Positions 18,240 to 64,000 of a stretch of DNA of 64,000 bases are shown here, one piece after another (within the stretch, counting starts at the first letter, position 1; every line of letters begins with the position of its first letter). The notes beneath the pieces are model-generated. The model was not told the DNA's origin. It saw nothing but the letters and a program-made list of their open reading frames with translations, and did not search any database. Origin of the DNA: a virus (lineage: Duplodnaviria > Heunggongvirae > Uroviricota > Caudoviricetes). The position numbers and the translations under genes are program-made. The stretch is from the IMG/VR virus record IMGVR_UViG_2029527006_000005; one strand, given 5' to 3'.

Positions 18240-20060
18240 ATGGGAAAACCAATAGCAGGAAAGGATCAATATCCTTTCCAAATCAATGGCATTATTGTAG
18301 ATGGTGCTAAAATAAATGGACAAACTTTTGTAAAAGGTCTATACATTTATAAACAACGTTCATATAACTATTATGATTTAATTGATTCTGATGGAAATGT
18401 ATATGAATTCATCGAAATTACTTGGAGAAAAGAAGATACCACCGTTCTTAATTACTTCGATAACTCAGATTATATTGTTGAAAGCATAAAAGATAATTCA
18501 TTTTTTATAAAGATTCAAGATATACCAAGAAACATTTATGGTTTTATTACATTAATACAATCAAACAAAGTTAAAGTTAGTACGGGTGATTATATTTTCT
18601 ATAATGACGAAGATGACTACGCTTTGTTGTCTGTTAGATGTATCCCAGCAACAATTCAAGCAAAGAAAAACCAGCTTGTTTCTATTGATGTTTCATTCCT
18701 TCCATTGGATTTTTCAAATCAAAATGGTAGATGGGATATGGAAACTTCAAATATAGCGGAAGTTGGTAGATCTAATACCAGTACTGGTATATTTAGATGT
18801 TTAGATGTTGGTCATGCACGAGTTACTTTTAACCCTGAAGCAAATACTAAACTAGCTGCAACTGCACAGATTTTCATTACTGAGAATGAACCAACATATA
18901 CTTCATTTAGATTTATGCAAAACGTTCCAAATGGAAAATCATTGTCAAATGATAATACATTTTTCCCTGGGGATGAAGTTACATTCACTGCGATTTTTGA
19001 ACCGTTTGGTTTTGTCCCAAGTCACGAATTTGATGTAATATATGATGAAACCGTTTTTGAATATCTTGGTTCGGATGATTTTATTAATTACAAATTTAAA
19101 GTACTAGATGATACTACCTTTAGTGGTGTAAGAACACGAGTAGAATTGCGTGATGGTAACATGTATGCATTTGATCAACCAATAATCAGGTTACCAACAA
19201 CATCAATATATACTGGCGTAGAAGGTCCATATTTTGTTCGTAGTGGCGAATCATATCAATATGATATGGCATATTATAGCAAGCCAGTAGATCCTTCTTT
19301 TACTTGGGGTGTACAAAATTCAAGCTTAGGGACTATTACATCTGATGGTGTGTATTCCCCGGTCGGAACTGGTGACAACCGTGTTTATCAAAACACAAAC
19401 GGTGGGATGAACTTGAACTACAAAAATGTAAAATGTTCTCCTTATGTACCAGATCGCTATGTATATTCACCAAGTGACCGTTCTGTATATTTTGTCGGAG
19501 AGGAAATCCAACTAACGGCAGCTACCATTCCTAGTTCAGTTTCATTGATAGGTGGAAAGTGGAGAAGTAGAAATAACAATGATTATGAATATTTCTCAGT
19601 AAGTACTTCAGGTGTATTGAAAATTTTAAAAGCACCAGACCAACCAACCAAACAATTTTATGTTGGATTTGCATACAATGGTTCAAGTAATGGTGGCGGT
19701 ACAGTTACGGATACAGTTGAAGCATTGGAAAAAACATTCATGATAATGGATGTAGATTCAAATGTTCCAATCCAGAGTATTAGAATTTATAATTACGCGG
19801 GGGTAGTTAACGTACCACTAGGTGGTAAAACCTCTACACAGGTAACAGTTTCACCAGTTAATAGTACTGGTAATAAAGGGTGGACTTATGAAATGTCAGT
19901 TGCTGGTATTGTATCAATTGAGTACATTCAAGAGTATAATAACAACTTCTACTTTACACCAGTTATAATTAATGGTTTATCTCGTGGTCAAACTGATATC
20001 ACATTCACGTGTGTGCAGAATCCTGAAATAAAAGTTATACAAACCATAACTGTTTATTAA
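18240..20060 (+). CDS. Virion protein with MGKPIA N-terminal domain and Ig-like repeats
   Basis: Paralog of 16243..18162, similar at both termini (NP.IK...V.VY). Confidence 0.8.
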   Translation: MGKPIAGKDQYPFQINGIIVDGAKINGQTFVKGLYIYKQRSYNYYDLIDSDGNVYEFIEITWRKEDTTVLNYFDNSDYIVESIKDNSFFIKIQDIPRNIYGFITLIQSNKVKVSTGDYIFYNDEDDYALLSVRCIPATIQAKKNQLVSIDVSFLPLDFSNQNGRWDMETSNIAEVGRSNTSTGIFRCLDVGHARVTFNPEANTKLAATAQIFITENEPTYTSFRFMQNVPNGKSLSNDNTFFPGDEVTFTAIFEPFGFVPSHEFDVIYDETVFEYLGSDDFINYKFKVLDDTTFSGVRTRVELRDGNMYAFDQPIIRLPTTSIYTGVEGPYFVRSGESYQYDMAYYSKPVDPSFTWGVQNSSLGTITSDGVYSPVGTGDNRVYQNTNGGMNLNYKNVKCSPYVPDRYVYSPSDRSVYFVGEEIQLTAATIPSSVSLIGGKWRSRNNNDYEYFSVSTSGVLKILKAPDQPTKQFYVGFAYNGSSNGGGTVTDTVEALEKTFMIMDVDSNVPIQSIRIYNYAGVVNVPLGGKTSTQVTVSPVNSTGNKGWTYEMSVAGIVSIEYIQEYNNNFYFTPVIINGLSRGQTDITFTCVQNPEIKVIQTITVY

Positions 20061-20064
20061 ACAT

Positions 20065-20090
20065 AAAAGGAGCCATCGGCTCCTTTTTTT
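20065..20090. terminator. Bidirectional terminator between convergent genes
   Basis: AAAAGGAGCC-ATC-GGCTCCTTTTTTT. Confidence 0.8.
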
Positions 20091-20367
20091 ATTGGTAATC
20101 ATTTAGTTTCTGCATTACTAAATCAGCATCAATCTTACTTTTGTAGTACACCCTGAACAACCCAAAACGACATACATCAATGTCACCATAATTTGTTGCG
20201 TTCGTTAGGTAGTACTTATGCTTCGTTGGTTCGTAACGTACTTTAAAATTACGACGACCACGATTCAAGTCAATTGATGTTTTCCGATCTCCGATATGGA
20301 TTAGTAAGGCAACTATTAAAAAAATTAATAACAACAACCCTACCGAGCCAATTAGTGGATAGAACAT
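20089..20367 (-). CDS. Membrane-anchored hypothetical protein
   Basis: Start probably MFYPL; N-terminal TM helix. Confidence 0.6.
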   Translation of the reverse strand: MFYPLIGSVGLLLLIFLIVALLIHIGDRKTSIDLNRGRRNFKVRYEPTKHKYYLTNATNYGDIDVCRFGLFRVYYKSKIDADLVMQKLNDYQ

Positions 20368-25040: not shown

Positions 25041-26483
25041 TTACTTTTTACCTTTTAAAGCCTTAGTAATAGTTTCGCTAAAGACTTTAACTGCACTGGA
25101 ACGAATTTCCACAATACGTTCATGTGTATCACAAGTATCTTTATCAAAACGGAATTCAACAAATACAGGTAGGAACACTTTAGGAATCTGAGTCTTCTTA
25201 TCTTTGGTTAACTCGTTGCACTCAACAGTAACAACTTTACCTAATAGCTCATCCTTCTTATCCCAAATACTTTGGAATGTCCACTCGTGTCCTTTCTCTT
25301 TAATACCAGTACCGCAGTTTGTGGTCAAAATACCATCTTCGGATTCTAGTACTAATGAACCTAGCATACCAGTACGTTTACCTTCTCCGGGAAGGAAACC
25401 AACAATACGTAGATCCATTTGCATCTTGAGTTTCATTTTTAATTGCTTAGGTGAGGTATGAGACTTCCAAATACCACCTTCACATTTAAGTACTGAACCT
25501 TCTTCACCACGTTCCATTAGCTCAGTATTATAAGCAAATGCATCTTCAATGCTTAGAACAGTTTCGTACTCAACCATACGAACAAACTCAGAGTCAACTT
25601 CATAGATTGCATTTTCTAGAATGTTACGACGCTCACGGCGGTTAACGTCCCAAATTCCTTCACAGAACGCATCGTAAGGCAATACATCCCATAAAACGAA
25701 CACAACCCGCATAGCTTCTGCCATCGTCATAGTGCCTTTCCCAGCCTTCTGGATGATGCCATTGCCAGTTTCACGAGGTTGGATATTACCTTGATCATCC
25801 ATCATCAAGCATTCACCGTTAAAGACTACCCCACTTTTAAAGCGTGGGTCATTACGGGAAATAGCGTCTGCTAGTTTTGCCATTTCTTCATCACGGCTTC
25901 CTAAGAAGTCATATAGTTTACCATTACGGGAAGTACAAGTCAAAGAAGAATTGATGACGGTATGGTTTAAGTACTGACCATCCATCTTCACTTCTGATAC
26001 TGCACAACCGTAAGTATCGAACTCAATATTACGAACAGTTTTGGTATCAATTAGAGAACAACGCATATATGGCTCATCTTTAATAAAGCCTTTACCAAAT
26101 ACATCGTTAGTAATTTTATCGCTTGCACCGCAACCTAAATCTTTTGTTAGTACACGTCGAAGTACTTCAGCATCATCATCTGATACAGAACCAAATAGAT
26201 TAGCAATGTAATCTCTGCCTGTGTGACCAGTTAGCTTACGAGAGTAGATTGCATCTAGTTTCTCTAGTGCCTCTCCCAATTCCATTCGTTCGCAATAGTT
26301 ATGCAAAGGTGCGGGTAGCTTCTTATATCCACTAACAATTCCGGGATCAAGTGCTAGTTTAAGTACACGCTTGAGTACTGGATTATCTTTATTCTCTTCT
26401 AGGATACGTTTCTTAGCAAGAATACTCGCGTCGTTTTTAATTTCTGTTAGAATTGATAGAATGTCTTTCATTTTATCCTCCAT
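25041..26483 (-). CDS. ATP-dependent DNA ligase, T4 gp30-like
   Basis: EVKMDG adenylation motif, SRNGK, FNGE, EGSVLK, OB-fold with FLPVF..FRFDK. Confidence 0.92.
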   Translation of the reverse strand: MEDKMKDILSILTEIKNDASILAKKRILEENKDNPVLKRVLKLALDPGIVSGYKKLPAPLHNYCERMELGEALEKLDAIYSRKLTGHTGRDYIANLFGSVSDDDAEVLRRVLTKDLGCGASDKITNDVFGKGFIKDEPYMRCSLIDTKTVRNIEFDTYGCAVSEVKMDGQYLNHTVINSSLTCTSRNGKLYDFLGSRDEEMAKLADAISRNDPRFKSGVVFNGECLMMDDQGNIQPRETGNGIIQKAGKGTMTMAEAMRVVFVLWDVLPYDAFCEGIWDVNRRERRNILENAIYEVDSEFVRMVEYETVLSIEDAFAYNTELMERGEEGSVLKCEGGIWKSHTSPKQLKMKLKMQMDLRIVGFLPGEGKRTGMLGSLVLESEDGILTTNCGTGIKEKGHEWTFQSIWDKKDELLGKVVTVECNELTKDKKTQIPKVFLPVFVEFRFDKDTCDTHERIVEIRSSAVKVFSETITKALKGKK

Positions 26484-26495
26484 GAATGGGAAGTA

Positions 26496-27695
26496 TTACT
26501 TCCCAATTTTTAGTTTACCGAACATTACTTTTTCTGGCATTGCCATAAAGACTAGCTTATAGTGCTGGTCGGAATAATTACTGAATCCAGCAAATGGTGT
26601 TTCGGCTCTCCAACCACTAAAGCGTTTGTGTAAATCTAAGTTTACTTCAGGCATTAGCAATTGTCCATTCTCTAGAATTTCTGCATCATATGCGAAGAGA
26701 TATTTAGCTGTGCGGAATTTTTCAGTTTGTGATTTATTACCACTAGTGTAATAACCAGTATTATCATCTGCTGCACCAAGTACTCTCATAATTTTACCAC
26801 GATACTCAGTATAAACAAAGAACGGGTTGATATCACGTGTTAGTACTTTAGGATCAATTTCTTCGTACTCAACAGTACAATCTTTTAGCTTGAATGGTTT
26901 ATCGTCACCAATAGCTACTAGATCATAAGAATCATTCATAATATCAAACTGACCTGCTGGCATGTGTTTGTTGAAATTCATATATTGAAGTTCAACTTGA
27001 TGAATTACATCTTTACGGTCAATAGGCTGATGGCCCACAACATTGATATTATAATACGAGTCTACAATCTTTGTACGAATGAAGTACTTACCAGTATTAG
27101 TATTAAGAACAACTTCTTTCTTAGAACTCTTCTCTGGAATGCATAGTTCTTTATTCTTATTCATAACTAGTACATGATACTTTCCACAGTACTGGTATAG
27201 ATCGTTTTTTGAGCTATCAGTACGGAATAGATCACCTTCTTTAATTTCAGAAAGGAGGTTCTTCTTCTCTTCGGCTTTCTCTTCTTTCTTGATTAGATCG
27301 GCAAAGAGTTTAGTCTTAGTACTTACTAGTTTGCGAGTCTCAGTGAAGAATAGTTCTTCTTGAATAGCACCTTCAATAATTGTACTTGTTTCAATCAAGT
27401 CCATGAAGTTATCAGACGTGATTTCAAACTCGAAACCTTCTGGGTGACGTACACGCCAAACAACGTTTGAAGTACTGTAACGAGATACGTTAGTAACCAT
27501 TTGGAAGCCAGTTTGTGGTGTATTCTCTACGTAGATTTTAGGTAGACGATTGTCGCCCCAACGATCAGCAGTTTCTTTCTTCTTCTGGAATGCTTTAGTA
27601 TGTTCTGCATCAGCAACAACCATAAAGCCTAAAATCTCTTCAGTACTGCGATAACAACGGGATACATAAAACTTCTTAGGAATACTCATTTCCAC
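26496..27695 (-). CDS. Phage hypothetical protein
   Basis: 399-aa ORF; N-terminal HPEGFEFEITSDN segment. Confidence 0.8.
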   Translation of the reverse strand: MEMSIPKKFYVSRCYRSTEEILGFMVVADAEHTKAFQKKKETADRWGDNRLPKIYVENTPQTGFQMVTNVSRYSTSNVVWRVRHPEGFEFEITSDNFMDLIETSTIIEGAIQEELFFTETRKLVSTKTKLFADLIKKEEKAEEKKNLLSEIKEGDLFRTDSSKNDLYQYCGKYHVLVMNKNKELCIPEKSSKKEVVLNTNTGKYFIRTKIVDSYYNINVVGHQPIDRKDVIHQVELQYMNFNKHMPAGQFDIMNDSYDLVAIGDDKPFKLKDCTVEYEEIDPKVLTRDINPFFVYTEYRGKIMRVLGAADDNTGYYTSGNKSQTEKFRTAKYLFAYDAEILENGQLLMPEVNLDLHKRFSGWRAETPFAGFSNYSDQHYKLVFMAMPEKVMFGKLKIGK

Positions 27696-51544: not shown

Positions 51545-52018
51545 TTACTCCAAGTCAGGGTTTTTAACTGAAAGACTCTCAATATCTGATGCATAGATCA
51601 TCACATGCGGTTTGTCTTCTGCTACCTTAAAGTCGTGGTAGCTGTCCTTCACAATGAAATTATCAAGGATAAATCCTTTAGTGAGGAATAGCATATACTT
51701 ATTATCATCTTTTGTCAAGTAAGTATTGCGACGATTTTCTACATTTCGTTGAGCAGTATCTTCTTCCGTATTTCTACAAACACGTTCGTTATATTCCTGA
51801 TGGGTATACATTGGCATTCCCATTACCCAAGACGATTCTGTACTAATTGTTACAATAAAAAGATTGCACTTATCCGAGTGGAAGCAATCATGCATAGACT
51901 TACTACACAAAAACAAGCATTGTATCACATCACGAAAATTAAACATAATATCGTGAATCTCAAAGGCATCTTGAGTGATAATATCTTGTACGGGACCACT
52001 CTCTTTTATTCCGATCAT
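51545..52018 (-). CDS. Hypothetical protein
   Basis: AAGGAG RBS. Confidence 0.7.
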   Translation of the reverse strand: MIGIKESGPVQDIITQDAFEIHDIMFNFRDVIQCLFLCSKSMHDCFHSDKCNLFIVTISTESSWVMGMPMYTHQEYNERVCRNTEEDTAQRNVENRRNTYLTKDDNKYMLFLTKGFILDNFIVKDSYHDFKVAEDKPHVMIYASDIESLSVKNPDLE

Positions 52019-52069
52019 AGTTCACTCCTTGAACCTATTCACGAGTACAATCCATGTACTCTCAATATA

Positions 52070-54647
52070 TCATTTAGCTTCTAGCTTATACGCCTCAACC
52101 GCTTCAGATACATTCTCGATAGCTTGATCGATAAATTCTTTACTAACTAAACGCGGGGAGGTCTTCATTTCTTTTAGAAGCTCTAGGTATTTAGTCATTA
52201 ATTCTGGGATGATTCCAAAGTCGAAATCATGCACAGTGCTGTACTGAAATAGTTCACCACCATCGACATACAAGCGATTGTACGAGGTTTTAAACCCACT
52301 TTCGAGTACTGTTAGGGTCAAATCCAAACCACGCTCATACGAGCCTACAGACACGATAGCAGGGTTGATAGCAATACTAGCATTCTTTGCATTATCACTA
52401 TAAACTAAACGTAAAGTTCCAGCACCAATAATAACAGTTAGGTCATCTGTATTAAGGGTAGTAATATCCCCAGAAACAGAAACTTTATTATTTAGACGGT
52501 CTTTAGTACTGAAAGATTTAGATAGCCGTGCAAATGCATCTTCAAGTTTATTCATTATTCGTAATCCTTTAGTAGTTCTACTAGTTTAACAATACTATCA
52601 TCACTGCAAGTGTACGATAGGTTTAGAAGGGTGTACTGGAAGAAATCAATTTCATTAATTCCACCATACGGTACTGGTTGGGCTTTACCTTGTTTGTCTG
52701 CCATGTAAACATCTTCTGCATCAAAACGCATAGAAAATGTATCACGTTCTTCTGGGTTCAAATACACAATAAAACGACCCAAGGATTTAGCAAGTTTTTC
52801 AATCCTGATGCTATTAGAACCATAACTGAACTCAGCATCACCGCGATCATTCTGGAAATGATAGAAGTTGATACCACCAATATTAGTATAGCCCTCTGTG
52901 TATAGAAGGTCTTTGTGGTGATACATAACTTGAATCAGTTCATCAAGCGTAGTCGTCCGAGTCTTATTTTTGGTTAGCGAAAATAAATGAATCATAAATT
53001 CCTCTGCACATGGATAACGTTTTAATCATTGTATCATAGTCGAACTTGACTTGCAACCCCCAACCACCCACACAATTTTGAGTGAAGAAAACACCCTCCA
53101 TCTCGTCAAGTGTGAACGCTTCATCAAACAAATTAGTCTGATATAATTCGGTCTTTGGATTGTATACCATCAAGAATTCAGTACTGTAACGTATTACTAA
53201 TTTCTTTGGACTAATCATAATCCTGCATAAATCTTGCAAGTACTCAGTGCGAATATGTAAGTTAATGTGATTCTTATGACCAGCACAACGAACATCCATC
53301 GCGTATCCATCACCGATAACAAAACCATTTCTGGGGGTAAATTCTTTACCCGCACTCATTGACAGGCAATCCTGTACAATATAATTGATTGTATCCAAGT
53401 TGTCAAGTATATCTACTTTACGCATATCTTCTCCTTTAAATCCCAACCTTATGTATCAATGTACGACGAATTTTACGAACATACTGAGTCTTAAATGAAA
53501 ACGGGATATAAAGATGATAACCCTCTAATTCCGGGCAAGGTGCTGTAAGAATCTCTTCATAGGCTCTTTTAATTATATTGTACTCTGGTAGTTCTGGGTG
53601 GATCAACGATAACTGAAAATGCTCATCTTCAGTACATAACCCTTCCTTAAAGAATGTGTCAACATAATCATCAGTATCCAATAAATCTGAATTTTCAGAA
53701 TTAACAAAAGAATAACCAAAAAATTCATCATCTTTGTTGTAGGCAACACTGCAACCTGTATTACAAAATAATGAAATGCCAGTATCTTTGGATAAATGGA
53801 ATACATGTTCGGAACCGTAACCATCAATGTATGTTCTTATATATATTTTATCTTTATCAGTCCATACAAATTCTAGTTCATTACCATCGTCCATGCGAGT
53901 GTTTTGTTGATAACTATAAGCTACTTTTTGTTTCCTGAAATTCAAACAACGAATAGCTAGATCTCTACATAACTCGAAATGCTCTTTAAGTTCTTCATAG
54001 TTCATTGGTTAAAATTCCTCAAAGTACAAACAAATGTCATCATAGATAGTGTTAAGAAGTTCAGTACTAACTTCTGGACAAAGATCCATATAGAAACACA
54101 TACCTTTCATTTCAGTACAATCCATAGTTAGTGCTTCCATATAACGTGGAAGGTCTTCGTACTTCAATACCATATCATCACGAATAAGTGATTGTTGAAA
54201 GTACTCTTCCTCGCTGATATTAATTACACCACCATCTAGCTTAGAATCCAAGTACTCATCTTCGTGATCATTCCCACTATCAAAGAATGTATACTCTTCA
54301 TTACGTTCATCACCTTCCATGAAGTTACGGCCCCATCCACGATGTGTACGGAGATTGATAATATACAAGTGCTCATGATTTCCAATTTCGCAAATCTCGT
54401 AACGTTCTTCGTGATCATCCATATCAAATGATACACGAACTAATGCATGTTCGTCTGCGTACTTAAACCCATACACCCTGCATAAGTATTGTGGCATGTA
54501 CTTTTCATAAGAGAATACTTTTGGTTTATTCTTATTAAGCAAAGCACCCAATTCTAGCATAAGTTTGTAACGATAGATATCTTCATCTACTTTGTCTTTA
54601 AAGGTTGAACGCATCATAAAAGTCATTGACAATATCCTCTGCCTCAT
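52070..54647 (-). CDS. Five FQxS-family proteins (52070-52555, 52555-52995, 52964-53446, 53436-54005, 54009-54647)
   Basis: GELFQYS, IDFFQYT, EGVFFTQN, EDEHFQLS, EEEYFQQS. Confidence 0.75.
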
Positions 54648-55005
54648 CTTGGTTCATTGGTTCTACTGAAAGTATTTCGATACGTTCAGGTTCCCAGATC
54701 ATATAAGAATTACATGTATCTGGTTCGAAAAGATTTTTGTACTCAACTGAATTATATCCGTCACGAGTACAGGAATTGATTGTATCACGCCATGCTTGAC
54801 AGTCACCCATGTCATCCATAGCCACTACACGACCTAGATCTACTTCTAAGCGGTGCACATAGATCTCTAGCTCACCACTACCACAGTAGTTGCGAACCTT
54901 GCGTAAGGCCGCCTCAAGAGCACTGTGAATACCTCCCATATGAATCCCACCATATGGAACGTAAAAATCTTTAATTTTAACTGTACTTGCGTGATACAAA
55001 ATCAT
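54598..55005 (-). CDS. ADP-ribosyltransferase-fold-like protein
   Basis: LYHAS...F...GIHMG...A...GYNSVEYKNLFE...SYMIWEP fits the HxS/T...YxNxxE ART-like pattern. Confidence 0.5.
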   Translation of the reverse strand: MILYHASTVKIKDFYVPYGGIHMGGIHSALEAALRKVRNYCGSGELEIYVHRLEVDLGRVVAMDDMGDCQAWRDTINSCTRDGYNSVEYKNLFEPDTCNSYMIWEPERIEILSVEPMNQDEAEDIVNDFYDAFNL

Positions 55006-55006
55006 T

Positions 55007-58000
55007 TTAATATCCCCATAGTAATTCGTCTAAGCATTTATATGACGGATAGTAACACATCTGGGGTTCGATTGTCAAGCTATCATTATCATAAAGAGGA
55101 AGATTTCTCATACGATTCATGATCTCATTTAATTCTTCAGCAGTGTAAGTGTCCATGATAGTACTGTGCATGAATAACTCACTCTCTGCTTCAGCATCCA
55201 ATTGGCTGTCACGACAGTACCAACCAATCTCGTATTCTTTCTCTTCTAGACCATATACCCGTACTGGACATGTATCACAACAAGTAGCATTAGAATAAAT
55301 CTCTATCATGTTCACGGATAATCTGTTAGTTGGGTGTCTGGTAAAACATTGTCCTAGAGAAAGAATACCATTACGGTAGGAGTACTTATTTTCTTGATAA
55401 GAAATACTCATATAGTCAGGCCAGAAGTCTGCTGTTACTGGACCTTTTTGCTGTGCATGAATATTGAGATTAATACCATCACACGTCTTCTGAAAGTTAT
55501 GGTAACGCTGAATTAAAGCAAATAAAGAGAAGTACACTTTATCATTTAACATCATATCCATAACGGTTTTTAATTTTTGATCTCCAATCATTACCACACC
55601 TTTCTGCCATTAATTCAATAAGTGCTTTACGTGCTGGAACAAAACGCAACACGTCTGTTGTACCTAATGCAAGAATTGATTCAGTACTGATATCATCCTT
55701 GAACATTTTTAAATGATCATGTACGAAGTGTACTAGATATGCACCATCAATTCTTTTTTGATCCCCTACCAGTAAAGCCTGAAACTCTGCTTCACGCATC
55801 GAATCATTGTCTATCCCCTCAAGAATCATATTATACACTATCGCAAAATCATTGTCAAAGTTGCGATATAAATTATCAATACAATCCATATGGGATAGTA
55901 CAAATCTGTACTTTGAATTGTTAGGGGAAGTGAAGTTCTTAATATGATTCTTACTACTTGTAATAGTAATTAATCTATCATAACCTTCATCGTATGTAAT
56001 AGCATTGTGTAAATTTACTTCAGGCCATCCAAAGCTAAAACGGTATGACCGAATCTTTTCACCTTTCTCGTGAGGGATATAATGCTGACCACCAATACCA
56101 CTTCTGTACTTTGCTAAATCTGGGTAATTATCATTGTAGAGTTTAAACATGTACATAATATCTAAAATGTACCCAGATAGCTTTTTCATCTTTTCGTATG
56201 AAGTCTTCATGCTAAATTTAATAACCCCCATACCTTTTGAGTACAATAATCTTTGAGTTTAATGTCGTTAAGTTCCTCTTTATTCTCGGCAATTGAAATG
56301 GCATAATCAGGTGGACAGAACTCACTAAAGTGATGATAATGTTCCCTCATCATTACATAATCCGAATAATCAGGAACCGAAGCCAAAGTACTCAACTGAA
56401 ATATTTCCTCTTCAGTAATATCAATTGGTACTTGAGATAGTTCTACTGTACTATTTCCAATCACAATATCAGTACTGGAAGAATTCATATACATATTCAT
56501 ACGTTTTGAAATCGTATCACCAAAACCACTAAACATCAACCTAGATTCTTTTGGCATAAGCATATTTGGTGAAGGAGAGACATTGAATATTTTAATTCTA
56601 AAGATTGATATATTATCACGGTGTTTAACATCAAATGTAGTTTCATACTCATCTTTGTATAAACACATCTTCAACAATCCCATACAACCATCATAGCTCA
56701 TCATTAAGTCTACATAGAAAGAAGGTACATTATTATTGAAATGTATTACTGCTTTTAATAAGTTTGTGTAATCTTTGAAATCCATGCCATGCCCTCATCT
56801 AGAATTGAATCAATAATCTCAAAGTTTTCATCACTCATGCGGTTGACCATAATAGTATTAATATCTGGGTTTAAATTCTTTAGTACTGCTAGAATAGTTA
56901 ACGCACGTGCATCCGGTACAATCAAATCCGATAGGAAGAAAAGTTCTTCCTCGTTATTACCATCCCATTCTGGAACTAATACTGTCTTATTATCAACTAG
57001 CAATTCATTACCTTGACACCTACGCCAGAACATAAGAATACCATTTACAGTCGTATCCATTCTATTTTCTAGTACTGGATTCGGATGATTGAAAGTTCCA
57101 ATTCCAAATACTGGAAGATTGTAATCATTATTCAGGATTTGAAATCCAGAACCAGCAGTACTATAATTCGTATTGAACTCGAATTTACCTTTAGTAATAC
57201 GGTTACCAATACAAGAGTAAGGTTGTAATGCGTCAACTTTTTTACAGAAGTTTAAAATATCAGTCATGGAATGTATCTCTCAATTTAGTAAGTTCTTCAA
57301 TAATAGTATCAACACAGAATGTATGATTAGAGTACGAAAGAACACTAATTCCATTCGGGTTGTTGTACTTATAATGAGACATAATCGCAATCTCATCAAT
57401 TGCGGTGTTATCATAAATTGTACTCAACTGGAAGATCTCACCTTCACCCTCACCAGTTTCAATGTTAACCGGGAATAAATTGATAGAAACACTATCCTTA
57501 CCACCAATATAATCCATGTGTTTACATTCACTAAGACGAATAGAACTCGCTTGGTGTTCAGAACCATAACATATAGGAGCCACTTTAGACTCCCTTGTTG
57601 AAATGTGATAAAGAGTTGTAATGTTCAAAACAGTATAAAGACTAATACCCATATCATCATTGTGGAAAGTAATACCAACATTATCATACAGTGTTTTACA
57701 GAAGTTCTTCCCCTCAAATGCATAAAGAGGTAATAGTTCTTCCAAGAGTTTTAGTACTTTATAATGTTTCTGATACATTAGATATCCTCTTTTAAATTCT
57801 GTACAAAAGTAACAATCTTACTTTCTACTTCATCAATGATTGAATCATCAACAACAGTAGGAAGGTTTATGTACTGATCATATTTCTTTTCATTCTTCGC
57901 TACGTAACCGTCAAACATGTTATCAACGATATTAAGTAAACTGAAGATACAGTACAACCCAAATGAATGACCATCAAAGGCAGTAACAGTACTGTGTTGG

Positions 58001-59624
58001 AATTCCAACTCTTCCATCTCATCACGTACAATCAAAGAACCACCAGCTTCTACTGGAAGCGACTCAAGCTCAATAGCTTCGTGTGCATTCTTTTCAGTGA
58101 AACGTAATGTAGTCTTTTTACCTGATAGTACTAAAGATTTACCAGTTAAGTAATTTTCAGGACTGTAGTAACCGTTATTTTCAGCTAGATGCGTTTTGAG
58201 AATAGTATTACCATTATGTGTCTCATTGTTCATAATCATAACAATGAACTCATTACTCCCACGTGTATAGAATAAACGCAAGGAATGTGTATCATTAACA
58301 TCACCCAAATCCCACATCATTCTGTGCTTGATTTCAGTACTGTCAGATTGATCTAAAAGTACAGTCGCTTGTTGAATGTACTTAATCATACGGTAGTGCT
58401 TTAACATGCTATTGTGATTCATTATAGTATCCTGTATCTTCTGAATAATGGCCTACTTGTAAAATAATTATACAGATAATCATTCTCCAAGTCAACCCCT
58501 CTGTGGAAATTATATACCACAAAATCGATGTTCTTCAGCCGCAATGCTTGAAAGTCAATGACGTTGTACATCATATCACGCATAAATTTGTTGTCCACTG
58601 TGAAGTCCACTGCTACTTTGCGTTCAGCCGCATCACACGTTTGATCATACGGAATATATTCTTCTAGTACATCTCCACTATCTAAGTAACCACTACGCAT
58701 AGTCAAGCACTGATCACTGAGTGAAGTTAATATAACACTATCAGTGTACATATAATAGTTCACGTGAGTATGGCTTGTTATTAACCCTTCGGATGCATAG
58801 AATGTTATCACGTCATTGTTTAGTGAAGCTACATTCTTCTTCTCAAGTACAAGTTTCTTTACTGACTTATTATTACCTAAATCTTCAGTATCAACCCTTA
58901 AAGCAAACTCACCCAAGTCAATAAGATCTTTGCGATGGATTAGTCTTTCCCATTCTATGTCAAGCATTGAACTGAACTTAATAAGCTCTCTATATATCGT
59001 GTCAAGTGTGTTCATAAGACCCCCATAAAAGAAAAGGCAGTGTATCACGATACACCGCCTGTGTCAACATCAACATGCCGCTTCTGCTTCAAAAATATCA
59101 ATCATAGCTTGAACCGCTTCAGTACTGAAGGATAACAAGCGAGTCGCATTTAGTGCAAAATAATAATCGTTATTCATTGTGTTATGATAACAGTACTCAA
59201 TGTATGAAGCAAATAGTTCTATTTCATTATCTACAACCATACGCTGGAATAGTTCATCATCAGTACCATTGACAATTATTTCAATTTCAGCACACTCTGG
59301 ATTGTTATCAAAATTGATAATCTTACGCTCTAAGCAAGTCTCTAAACTATGCATAGTTAGAAGTATATCACCTAGATTGGTTTTTTGTATATGCATAGTA
59401 CCTTCAGAACTTCTGTCCAAATAAGTATGACACGCAACTAAGAACCAATCATCTATTGTACTTTTAAGTACTGAACTATGATGTTCGCGATTAATAACAT
59501 CAGTCCCAACAAAAACAGTCATCTTTGCTAAATCAGTAATATTTCTGCACATGTGCCGTTTATTGTCATGTATATCCATGATGCAATCAATAAGTTTCTT
59601 TATTAGATCGAATTTGGCAAACAT
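55007..59624 (-). CDS. Eight tandem FQxS-family proteins (55007-55597, 55542-56246, 56207-56785, 56755-57267, 57260-57778, 57778-58422, 58422-59015, 59070-59624)
   Basis: ESELFMHS, EAEFQAL, EEEIFQLS, EEELFFLS, EGEIFQLS, EELEFQHS, DDELFQRM; 58422-59015 lacks a clear motif. Confidence 0.75.
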
Positions 59625-60217
59625 TTCTTTTTCATCTCCTGAAGTTCAGAATGAGCATCATAGATTTTCTGTACTGAATTAGCAAAACAAATATAAACCT
59701 TAGTGTGGTTTTCTTCACAGAGAGTATCTTTCAACATGAAGTTCAATACCATAGCATTGATTTCATCAGTACTATATACTAGACCCTTCTGGAATAATTC
59801 ACCCCGTAACTCTTCTTCATTATTAACATGTATTAGAGTAGGAAGATATACCTCATCACCTTGTATATCCCGCCAGAACCAATTACGATCATTCACTACT
59901 AAGATTTCACCACTACCTTCTCGAATGCACATACGCTTCTTGTCTGACTGATAGCGAGTACTGTATGGTCTGTTGTCATCCATAGGATCAGTATTAGCTG
60001 CTACAATAAATGAATTATAATAGTTCACATCTTCAGAATTCAACTGCAATGCAATACTATTTTGTATCTTCAGGATTTTGTACTTTGAACTCTCATATAG
60101 TACTGCATCCATCTGGGTTACATCATCTAATACCATGTAATCAGCTATGTCACGAATCAATAAACAAACTTCTTGTACTGCTAACCACTCCAAATAACTA
60201 CAATCTGCTAAATTCAT
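59603..60217 (-). CDS. FQxS-family protein
   Basis: Start MNLAD after GGAG; RGELFQKGL. Confidence 0.75.
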   Translation of the reverse strand: MNLADCSYLEWLAVQEVCLLIRDIADYMVLDDVTQMDAVLYESSKYKILKIQNSIALQLNSEDVNYYNSFIVAANTDPMDDNRPYSTRYQSDKKRMCIREGSGEILVVNDRNWFWRDIQGDEVYLPTLIHVNNEEELRGELFQKGLVYSTDEINAMVLNFMLKDTLCEENHTKVYICFANSVQKIYDAHSELQEMKKKCLPNSI

Positions 60218-60248
60218 CTTAATCTCCAACTTAAACGCAATCTCATAG

Positions 60249-60342
60249 CACCGTCGCCCGGTCGCCCCCCGATTACACTTTATTTGCACTTTGTGAAGCG
60301 AAAATTTTTTTACGCCCCGGCACGCATATCCTCCGGGGGGTA
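60249..60342. other. GC-rich intergenic element; candidate genome terminus, packaging or injection-stop signal
   Basis: CGCCCGGTCGCCCCCCG...GCGAAAATTTTTTTACGCCCCGG...CCGGGGGGTAAC in an AT-rich context, at a compositional boundary. Confidence 0.45.
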
Positions 60343-60346
60343 ACAT

Positions 60347-63300
60347 TTATTTATGCTTTGTAATTTCCATCATTTCGGCTAATTTCTTGTTCACATTCAT
60401 AATAGCTGTATCTAAACGTTTAATCTGTAACAAACTCTGTCCGTAATAAATCATTTCACCTAACTTGTACTCCGCATCACGTAAACCCATCCACGTAGCA
60501 GCACCATCCGTCAAACGACTATCAATACACATCTGTGTCTGGAATAATGTCTCATCTGGTAGCTCCATAATATCTAAACCATCAGGCAATTGTACTGCAC
60601 TGTTCTCGTACTTAACTTGTGCAAACAAAGGGGTATTACGCATTACGTACTGAATGTAATTACTATCTTCTGTACTTTTAATAACTGAATGTGTTGGAAT
60701 TGGCTTCAATGGGATAATGGGCATGTTACGATTTAAACTAACGTACATTGAATTACCTTTACCAACAGATAAATCTATTTCGTCTGATTTTCCCGTTCCT
60801 GCACTAAAAAAATACTTCTCTTCTTCAAACAATGCCTGTACTTCATTGTAGGTCACTCCACGTGCTCTGTGCTCACGAATCAACCACAACCCAGCAGCAA
60901 TGTGCGGTAAATATTCATTACCGATTATGTACTGATCACGGAACTTCTTACCCTCTTTACTCACTTTTAATTTTAATGACATATTCTTCTAATGCCTCAA
61001 TAATTTCATCGTAAGGAATCACTATAACATTATCCACCGCGATTGTCAATACTCCCGTAAGGATATCACACGTATTAACTAAATCATCGCCCTTCTCAAA
61101 GGTACGCTTGATTTGATCAATACCCATCGAAAAATCACTCAACACCTTATCAGCATCTAATGCCATATCAGGCTCGCAACTCACATTGTGCTGGAATAAC
61201 TCGCATTCTAACGCATCGTAACCATCCTCAAAGGGATTCTCTAAACTGAATACCCTTGGCCTACCCTTCTGTACTACGGCCCCTGCTGACACCATAGCGA
61301 TATCCTGAAGCGATTTATAGGAACTCTGCCACGATAACCAATGACCATCTGTACTGATAATCGGTACTGCATTCTCGAATTTACTATAATGACACGCTCT
61401 GAACTCAGCAATGGGTACAAATAACATACCACTCATTGTCGGTACTTCAATCTGTAATGAAGCAACCCATACATCATTTGTGTGATCAGGGTGGTAATAC
61501 TTCTTCGGTACTCGTATACGAAAACCTTGCGGTACTGAACCTACTACTTTACGATCAATACAACGTGGCATTGCCTCCATTATCTGTACTAACCTTTGTA
61601 ATTTAATACTGTTCAAAGCCTGTGTATCCATTGTATCCATTGAATCCATACTGTTCTCTCATCAATTTGATAATGTTCAATACGCCCTCACAATGGTTCA
61701 ACGGATCTGCACCTAACCACATTTGAATGTTAGGTAACTTCCGTCTACGCCACTCGAACGCAAACATCAAAGCATTAATAACTTCAACCTTCTGTACTAA
61801 ACTCTCTTGGAACAAAAACATCTCCGTATCTGGATCTGTCATGTCCATCATTTCGTACTCAAAATATATATCACTAATGATACTTTTACGGAATATAATT
61901 CTATCACTATCTTTGTTTAATGATATATGACTCGTTACTGTATCATTTAATAATACTACGTTTAACTCTATGTTTGTGGTATAATCCCAATTGTACTTTA
62001 AAACCGTTTTATTAACACACGCTATATGAAAAAACTGCTTTTTATCTTTATAATTATAATTGAAAAAACCACCATCCCTTTCAAAACCTACAACAACATC
62101 ATTCTCAAAATTCCATGACTGTACATTGAATACTTTTTGTTGTATGTCTTTATTCTTCAGGTACTCATTCGTGATACCAATTAATGCCATCGCTTCCTCT
62201 AGGTAATCAATGCATTGACGCACCTCTTGTACTGTTAATATGTTCATAACTTTGGCTCCCCAAGCTGTACGTATAATTCATTGAAGCGTTTATTCTGGTA
62301 ATATTCTATGGTACTCTCCATGCTCTCTATTACACGATCTAATACATTTAAGGACCACACGTGTACAAAAGCAAACCTAGGCATCTTTAATTCATGTAAT
62401 GCGTACATAATACAAAACTCATCGTACAACTTATCATGTATTAAACTCTGCTGAAATAAAAATGATTCCTTATCGTTGAAATCTAATTCATATTTCGTAC
62501 CATCTTCATCATCGATATCCCGCACGAATGCTGTACTATTTGGATTGTAAATTATTACATTGTGCTGATTACCCTTGATAATTTTCTTATCCGAAATGTA
62601 ATTGTAATCCCACATATCCCCCCAAGCGATCTTGTGATCGATAACAGGGTCACTACCCTGATACCACACGCAATCACCCCTATCATGAAAAGCTGATACC
62701 ATCAAAGGACTTCTGCATATTGGTGTATCACATGTGTATGTGTACAACTGCTCCAATAAGGAATCAATCTTGCATATTTTCTGTGCGTACTCTATGTGCC
62801 AATCTTGCATCAACTTCCCCTATGAATTCTGCTGTACTGTTCTGTACATATTCTAAAATCTCTAATAAACCCTGTAATGAATATGCATTAAAACGTAATG
62901 TGAAATTGTGCTTGAACTCATTCTCTTTAAGATACAACCAAAATCCTACATCAATTTCTTGTTCTGTGCTTTGTACTAAACTCTGCTGGAATAGCCATTC
63001 CTCGGTCAAATTCTTACGCTCATGGAATGCATGATGTATACGTATTGTATCACCTGTATCAAACGAAAAACGTAAAGCTACTCCTTTCGCCCTGTGAGGT
63101 TCTCCCATAATGAATGAAACACTATTACACAAGGACTTTGCAAGGACTCTACTCTCTTCATCGGTGGGATGATTGAAATATTCTAATGCACCTCTGCTTA
63201 TTGTAAAACATTTTGGTACTTGCATCTTAATATCATTACGCATAGCTTCGCAATTCTTAATTACAAATAATGTGTACGTATCATATAATGTCTTTAAGGC

Positions 63301-63868
63301 TTCCATCGCCTGTCCGTACTCGTGTCTCTCGATCATAAATCTTCTCCAAATCAGCAAGAAATACATCTACATCAAACCATAAATTCTGATGGAAGGTTCC
63401 CAATATCCCAGCATTATGCATAGCGGATACAACGTACTGACAATGTACAACCTCTGGTTTCGCTACGAATTGCAACTGCTCATACATAGCCTCATCCATC
63501 TCTTCTGTACTAAGGATATCATGAACTGAAAAGGTATTGCAAGAACTTTCGTACAAAAAATCCATCGTGTTTTCAATGTTTACACTACAATACGTACAAT
63601 TCTGTACATCTCTGTAATTAGCAAAATTCGTATCGTCTGTTGTACTAATCAATGTGTATGTATTCAAAAGATTCTTTTTGTTATAATACAACATGTGCTC
63701 AAGGTCACCATCTAAATGTAAACTCATCTCGATTTTTATTGTACCACATGAACTAAAATATGTACCCTTACCATCGTAATTTACAATAAATGCTTTGTAC
63801 TTCTCTAACCATTCAAAGCACTTTAGGATTTTATTTGTGTAATTTGTTGTGTACTCAAATGTGTACAT
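60347..63868 (-). CDS. Six tandem FQxS-family proteins (60347-60982, 60957-61649, 61603-62247, 62244-62813, 62764-63336, 63281-63868)
   Basis: DETLFQTQ, ECELFQHN, EMFLFQES, ESFLFQQS, EEWLFQQS, DEAMYEQL. Confidence 0.75.
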
Positions 63869-63999
63869 AGCACCTCCTGGAACAACGTAATTAACTCTCT
63901 TGGACTGTGTACTAAATTCTCATAATACACCAACTGCCTCTCTTGACTATCCAAAATACTCATGAGAATAATACAATTCACTACATCTTTAGTGTGTAC
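63823..63999 (-). CDS. C-terminal part of a further array member; 5' end outside the window
   Basis: Hand translation ...VHTKDVVNCIILMSILDSQERQLVYYENLVHSPRELITLFQEVLCTHLSTQQITQIKS*. Confidence 0.6.
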   Translation of the reverse strand, partial: VHTKDVVNCIILMSILDSQERQLVYYENLVHSPRELITLFQEVLCTHLSTQQITQIKS

Positions 64000-64000
64000 A

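Follow-up and report, generated by a model that had tools for sequence, protein, structure and literature searches.

A one-strand ACT desert at the locus

The stretch of DNA analysed here (the window) comprises 64,000 nucleotides of the IMG/VR virus record IMGVR_UViG_2029527006_000005. It stems, in reverse orientation, from a jumbo phage of the RaK2/GAP32 group that resembles Munch, with a DNA identity of 79% in core genes. Near its right end lie several genes, a short non-coding element that we call E, and a desert in which the coding strand contains no ACT trinucleotide (Table 1). This is a property of a family of giant enterobacterial phages, in which one strand is purged of ACT over kilobases, between the end of the terminal repeat (TR) and E, which is conserved.

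The genes near the desert are all hypothetical and have 27-43% identity to Munch genes 059-070. Eight proteins local to the zone had no matches in PHROGs. Positions 52000-64000 lie within a single contig in each of two runs from ant fungus gardens, which are probably the source samples, and these contigs continue for ~9.36 kb beyond position 64000. The inner edge of the desert may be near 63990 or may lie past the end of the window.

Table 1. Features of the desert and of element E, with the genes around them (window coordinates)
Feature	Position	Strand	Remarks
ACT-free zone (zone B)	60102..63990	-	coding strand: ACT absent, TCT scarce; opposite strand keeps ACT and TGTACT(G)
Last AGTACT palindrome	60099..60104	.	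first coding-strand ACT past E (E+209); sharp desert edge
GC-rich block downstream of E core	60248..60271	-	
Core of E, AAAAAAATTTYCGC	60298..60311	-	one exact copy per genome
GC-rich inverted repeat between promoter box and core	60314..60343	-	in window and Munch
ATAAATA late-promoter-like box of E	60348..60354	-	overlaps stop codon of open reading frame 60347-60982
Hypothetical gene cut by desert edge	59603..60217	-	orthologue of Munch gene 066 (39%)
Hypothetical gene within zone	60347..60982	-	no orthologue found in Munch
Three hypothetical genes	60957..62813	-	orthologues of Munch 064, 063, 061 (37-43%)
Two hypothetical genes	62764..63868	-	orthologues of Munch 060, 059 (34%)

A sequence-only reading of the window had described an abrupt loss of AGT and AGA, with AGC and AGG retained, from the plus strand after 60104. 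The counts for 60105-64000 bear this out: AGT occurs once (at 63991) versus 81.6 expected and AGA 6 times versus 53, while AGC (31 versus 34) and AGG (27 versus 25) are not depleted. As the reading had also estimated, GTAC remains frequent there (53 sites), is often followed by T (33 sites) and is never preceded by A; 20 of the sites are TGTACT. A minor correction concerns 59401-60000, where the 13 AGT reported become 14 on recount.

The same reading regarded protein composition as an unlikely cause, and this view holds against a codon-aware null in which each protein is fixed and its codons are redrawn from the neighbouring genes; the genes to the left of the desert are reproduced by this null. 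Coding-strand ACT occurs 0 times in the zone versus 66.4±6.2 expected, with zero in all three frames, and TCT occurs 6 times versus 44.7±6.1. GCT and CCT show no depletion under this null. The threonine content is unaltered, and ACA codons take the place of ACT. GAG/CTC is also low in the zone (2 versus 22). We rejected CTC as a separate motif, since its scarcity is a by-product of WCT loss (W is A or T): in the four lineages pooled below, CCTC (7 versus 9.8) and GCTC (15 versus 12.9) are not purged.

The desert is anchored on R and E and scales with the distance between them

Whole-genome scans revealed a desert on the coding strand of Munch (25178-27567; ACT 1 versus 47) and of PBECO4 (8.1 kb; ACT 2 versus 157). 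It also occurs at the same place in fEgEco12, Kae01, Hallingskeid, EJP2, JNE01, XbC2 and Kaldavass. A depleted zone in related phages, a point on which the sequence-only reading had hinged, is thus found in the Munch, Asteriusvirus and Hallingskeid lineages and, in shorter form, in Mimasvirus. The desert is a real, conserved and strongly selected feature. When four lineages are pooled, the purged motif is WCT only (ACT 6 versus 393, TCT 65 versus 233); GCT, CCT, ATT and TTT are not purged, and ATT and TTT words rise.

Phages of the RaK2/GAP32 group have direct TRs of ~20 kb, for example 21,296 bp in Munch (PMC8273493), 20,993 bp in fEgEco12 (PMC13070987), 19,736 bp in Kae01 and 22,456 bp in CBB. 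The link to the terminal repeat that had been suggested is correct in that the desert is tied to it, but the TR itself is not depleted and keeps both ACT and AGTACT. Instead, the desert lies beyond the right end of the TR (R), which we placed in other genomes by a conserved motif (CTATG..AAGG..CT|TAGC), and forms the far part of the spacer between R and the single-copy element E. For the phage of the window, R is predicted at ~67.7-68.4 kb in window coordinates should the zone end at 63990, or at ~66.6 kb from synteny with Munch, with an AGT/AGTAC mirror pattern beside it. Its sharp edge is 83-303 bp past E.

Across genomes, R and E are 1.9 to 16 kb apart, and the reach of the desert from E toward R equals 0.61 x spacer - 1.2 kb (r=0.99, Spearman 0.91; 13 genomes), although the edges were defined by hand and the genomes are related, so that the p-value is overstated. 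The same trend is seen within Mimasvirus and within Asteriusvirus, and the desert is gone at a spacer of ~2 kb, which is near the length of an Okazaki fragment. Outer edges are sharp and inner ones fuzzy, and in long spacers the inner edge of the desert is at 0.46-0.51 of the spacer. Coding-strand ACT per kb in successive tenths of long spacers is 30, 26, 23, 29, 19, 4, 1.5, 0.4, 0.4 and 0.2, and AGTAC per kb is 1, 1, 3, 7, 11, 10, 7, 8, 7 and 6. The first kb beyond R has 24-35 coding-strand ACT, which is modestly raised.

These AGTAC values reflect a mirror zone, weaker than the desert, on the opposite strand; it starts at R and is clear in long spacers only. In it, AGTAC (7 versus 86) and AGT (148 versus 298) fall, and AGA is unchanged. 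On both purged strands, the 3′ ends point at the nearest boundary, R or E. The strand that keeps its sites in the desert has TGTACT in place of the palindrome: GTACT occurs 209 times versus 29 expected, 149 of them preceded by T, and TGTACT occurs at 5.1/kb versus 1.4/kb in the window's zone. In the mirror zone, the variant flips (AGTACA 0 versus 21, TGTACT 32 versus 12). AGTACT itself exceeds the frequency predicted by composition 7-10 times in each of the six clade sequences examined, on both strands and with no strand skew. Together with the conservation of the strand-specific loss in relatives, this agrees with the earlier proposal of a polar signal that is kept on both strands elsewhere and barred on one strand here.

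The fate of individual genes shows what the loss follows. Munch 064 and 063 lie within Munch's own ACT-free zone, and 061 straddles its edge. By contrast, the two window genes at 62764-63868 are ACT-free, whereas their Munch orthologues, 060 and 059, are outside Munch's shorter zone and are ACT-rich. ACT loss therefore depends on position and not on the gene, and this rules out import and gene-specific mRNA selection. The wider idea that early genes avoid ACU/UCU-cleaving toxins at the mRNA level, or that the segment is a block imported from an ACT-poor genome or a misassembly, is in our judgement very improbable as a whole. It is true that the purged strand of zone B is the coding strand, but the edges are mid-gene, the zone covers intergenic DNA, and the mirror zone purges the template strand, all of which differs from avoidance of mRNA interferase targets, as do the discordant orthologues. 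Early genes in the TR also retain ACT. The suggestion that first-injected DNA avoids a toxin fails similarly, because the TR, which is taken to enter first, is undepleted. As to misassembly, the contig is intact in both runs and the desert recurs in isolates. A description of the genes on both sides of the boundary as one family is weakly supported (BLASTP among these proteins, E>0.01).

E consists of a late-promoter-like TAAATA, usually 36-38 bp, the core AAAAAAATTTYCGC and a GC block; in the window, it is non-coding and extends from 60354 to 60248 on the minus strand. Its TAAATA box is one of three on that strand to the right of 52000. ATAAATA is the predicted late-promoter consensus of CBB (PMC5259590). 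The exact core is present in Munch, Kae01, PBECO4, fEgEco12, CBB, BF, GAP32, XbC2, Kaldavass, Yen9-04 and XaC1, and near variants occur in Hallingskeid, EJP2 and JNE01. The spacing from TAAATA to the core is near-fixed in most genomes, but the box is not at that spacing in EJP2 and JNE01; the T4-like late promoter is a prediction. E had no match in Rfam, and a scan for sigma-70 promoters and terminators gave results at chance level. We rejected the inverted repeat of E as a conserved fold, since it is AT-rich in CBB, BF and GAP32 and has z=-0.42 in the window.

Some further observations concern this element. At 60304, the T-run of the E core is longer by one T in one of the two runs, owing to a homopolymer error or a strain variant. 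Aquatic phage contigs of IMG/VR (L132-L135, L161, L172, L181 and similar) also contain an E-like motif (TAAATA, 35-36 bp, AAAAAAATTTYCGC), but no strand-specific desert was seen in them. L181 matches T4-like cyanophages, and its motif is near the gp25/gp6 baseplate genes, past a GC-rich block of small open reading frames. In cyanophage contigs, TTT/ATT are low upstream of such motifs; we rejected this as a desert, as it tracks high GC on both strands.

Candidate readers of WCT

The simplest account of the polarity is one strand-specific reader with a graded preference; its affinity would be graded because AGTAC and AGT fall in the mirror zone while AGA is unchanged. An account with two readers is improbable. 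In that case, a dimeric protein or methyltransferase would favour the palindrome CAGTACTG in double-stranded DNA, and a separate enzyme acting on single-stranded DNA (a toxin of host or phage, a deaminase or a DarT-like protein) would damage exposed WCT. The residual ACT is indeed mostly in AGTACT, C...G flanks persist in the one-strand zone, and the rise of ATT and TTT words would also fit. Like HIP1 of cyanobacteria, the palindrome is 7-10 times over composition on both strands. However, it is locally swapped for a one-strand variant, TGTACT or AGTACA by polarity, which is unlike HIP1 and suggests that it is read per strand: a symmetric reader cannot account for the non-palindromic TGTACT, whose seven-fold excess is confined to one strand and flips when the polarity does. 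Moreover, threonine codons go from ACT to ACA and not to ATT, ACT is lost most rather than TCT/TNTC, which are the targets of DarT, and the hosts belong to several genera. The DNA of fEgEco12 is also cut by SpeI (ACTAGT) as predicted (PMC13070987).

A directional translocase, terminase or injection signal, similar to KOPS or to the injection stop of T5, with E as a loading or stop site, is less probable still. E is single-copy, conserved, near the first-entering end and accompanied by a late-promoter-like box, as would be expected of such a site. Also, WCT resembles Chi, KOPS and Tus-ter in being a short polar word whose orientation switches at a defined chromosomal place. Yet the word has no genome-wide skew (AGTAC equals GTACT in six sequences; in Munch, they number 1411 and 1355), opposite polarities occur within one spacer, and the signal consists in one strand lacking a triplet, with R and E as the bounds. 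T5 has no such desert, and the zone also differs from a T5-like first-step-transfer region or an avoidance zone in the TR, since the depletion lies past R. The directional terminase or translocase signal put forward by the sequence-only reading is accordingly weak.

Sequence patterns incline us, somewhat beyond an even balance, to the phage primase as the reader of WCT. 5′-WCT-3′ (ACT strong, TCT weak; optimum (C)WGTACT(G)) would be the template site of the clade's own DnaG-type primase, with primers pppGU... or pppGA... and a cryptic 3′ T. AGTACT would then be iterated genome-wide because the palindrome serves both strands. WCT on the purged strand fits the grammar of primase sites, namely a trinucleotide core, a primer starting with a purine and a cryptic 3′ T. 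Reading the triplet on the other strand would require a start with a pyrimidine, which to our knowledge DnaG-type primases do not make. The strict core is the 3′ end of the favoured hexamer and most preferences are 5′ of the core, being strong at -5 to -7; sites of the T7 primase likewise have a strict 3′ core with 5′ preferences. The T7 gp4 site is 5′-(G/T)(G/T)GTC. T4 gp61 uses 5′-GCT/GTT and makes pentamer primers (10.1101/2023.05.03.539249). WCT shares with these sites a trinucleotide core with a middle pyrimidine and a 3′ end base, the 5′ preferences and a single-strand polarity, but the triplet differs and its primase reader is putative.

As in T4 and T7, a Zn-ribbon/TOPRIM primase is encoded in this clade (Munch, CBB, PBECO4, BF and RaK2); the gene is outside this window. 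The clade primase and gp61 are too far apart to be matched by phmmer, and the zinc-binding domain of the former has an invariant strand unlike those of T4, PA5oct and XacN1. The last two phages also do not have the AGTACT word.

Several findings weigh against the primase. The co-distribution of this domain with the word amounts to one event in one clade. The sites also favour a G 3′ of the core, for which a primase has no need. T4 and T7 neither iterate their own primase sites nor have site-free zones. Of the 11 residual coding-strand ACT, 9 are in GTACT, 8 of them in AGTACT, the supposed strongest site; these might be kept for their benefit on the other strand. RaK2 and Muenster are enriched in AGTACT yet have no recognisable E and no desert, and in BF and Yen9-04 (Eneladusvirus) and in XaC1, E is present with hardly any desert beside it. 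No comparable desert was found in T4, T7, T5, SPO1, the ends of phage K, PA5oct, XacN1 or part of Atu_ph07, and of these T5, SPO1, PA5oct and XacN1 have long repeats. Finally, a primase leaves unexplained why the site-free span extends over kilobases rather than being a local gap.

The main rival, which is unlikely but fits the geometry equally well, is that an end-processing nuclease or helicase of the phage (similar to gp46/47 or UvsW) is stopped or modulated at WCT/GTACT in the manner of Chi, or that a phage nickase of single-stranded DNA targets this word. Enzymes entering at R and E would run to mid-spacer, and, for example, the complementary 3′ tails would anneal or the excised spacer would be destroyed. 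The purged strands are those with 3′ ends facing R and E, and the sharp outer edges, the fuzzy inner ones and the mid-spacer position of the latter in long spacers also suit this explanation. Against it, any DNA contains a 3-base core about once in ~50 bp, which makes it poorly suited as a stop or self signal; the Chi words that are known have more than three bases. We know of no such sequence specificity for gp46/47. Candidate enzymes do exist in the family, in that CBB encodes gp46, gp47, UvsX, UvsW and endonuclease VII (PMC5259590).

A possible role in terminal-repeat duplication, and further observations

Should the primase be the reader, TR duplication or end formation would be the probable purpose of the desert. 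The more specific proposal is that WCT is excluded to keep the primase from priming before E on the fork that copies the TR. We regard this as tentative and, judging from the sequences, slightly less than evenly balanced. It is the primase form of the primase or nickase exclusion that the sequence-only reading had offered, and is the reading we favour, except that the zone is not the TR itself.

We infer each step of the fork model. In the part of the spacer near R, the coding strand would retain its sites and the other strand would drop the strong ones, while in the half near E the coding strand would drop all. Having finished the ~20-kb TR, a rightward-moving fork would still prime right past R, and R would thereby become double-stranded, as needed for cutting by the terminase. 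It would then be unable to re-prime before E, where it would be stopped or cut, and the coding strand would remain single-stranded, its 3′ end pointing to E. Once R has been cut, the 3′ tail of the opposite strand would also be unprimed, corresponding to the mirror zone.

An extension of the primase reading, which we consider rather doubtful, is that R, the spacer and E form a cassette that regenerates the ~20-kb TR, the absence of priming sites being itself the signal. DNA ends at E and R would each give a 3′ tail that cannot be primed; the two tails would overlap near the middle of the spacer, so that the copied repeat would be released and re-joined.

In T7, terminase recruitment is linked to a promoter. 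Duplication of the T7 terminal repeat involves the hairpin M-end (Chung et al. 1990, PMID 2266564). The arrangement described here similarly has a dedicated region in cis, which lies on the concatemer but not in the repeat, and a signal beside the right end that is linked to a predicted promoter. Unlike in T7, the repeat is ~20 kb rather than 160 bp, there is no sequence likeness, and the T7 ends have no primase-site desert. Our literature searches, which most subscription journals were outside the reach of, found no published description of such a desert.

As separate mutations can be made in R, in E and in a signal that is purely synonymous, the way in which direct terminal repeats of 10-60 kb are duplicated from concatemers becomes testable in culturable phages. 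If the primase is the reader, genome statistics would by themselves have disclosed its specificity, and the AGTACT excess across the clade would be accounted for. A triplet's absence over kilobases would then prove to function as a cis element. If the cassette exists, the mechanism by which long direct TRs are duplicated would be written in trinucleotide polarity.

We now note additional properties of repeat ends and words in these and other phages. At the left end of Munch, AGTACT peaks in the first 2 kb of the TR (13 and 9 per kb versus ~2.4 genome-wide). Muenster has a tandem TATTCTGTAC(T) cluster directly inside R (20030-20200), with ~11 coding-strand ACT in 150 bp, and PA5oct has short tandem repeats just inside its R. 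In PA5oct, the over-represented palindrome is TGCA (1886 versus 880) instead of GTAC, and there is no GCA/TGC desert near the repeat end.

CCCTA/ACCCTA is over-represented on the plus strand of SPO1 and phage K (ACCCTA 75 versus 20 in SPO1). CTA is the triplet of Firmicute DnaG, and the excess may be a parallel case.

In window positions 1-60104, CCWGG is nearly absent (CCAGG 1 versus 17, CCTGG 1 versus 17), and GATC, CTTA and TAAATA are under-represented. A terminator-like hairpin occurs on the minus strand at 59035-59060, in the gap between two hypothetical genes.

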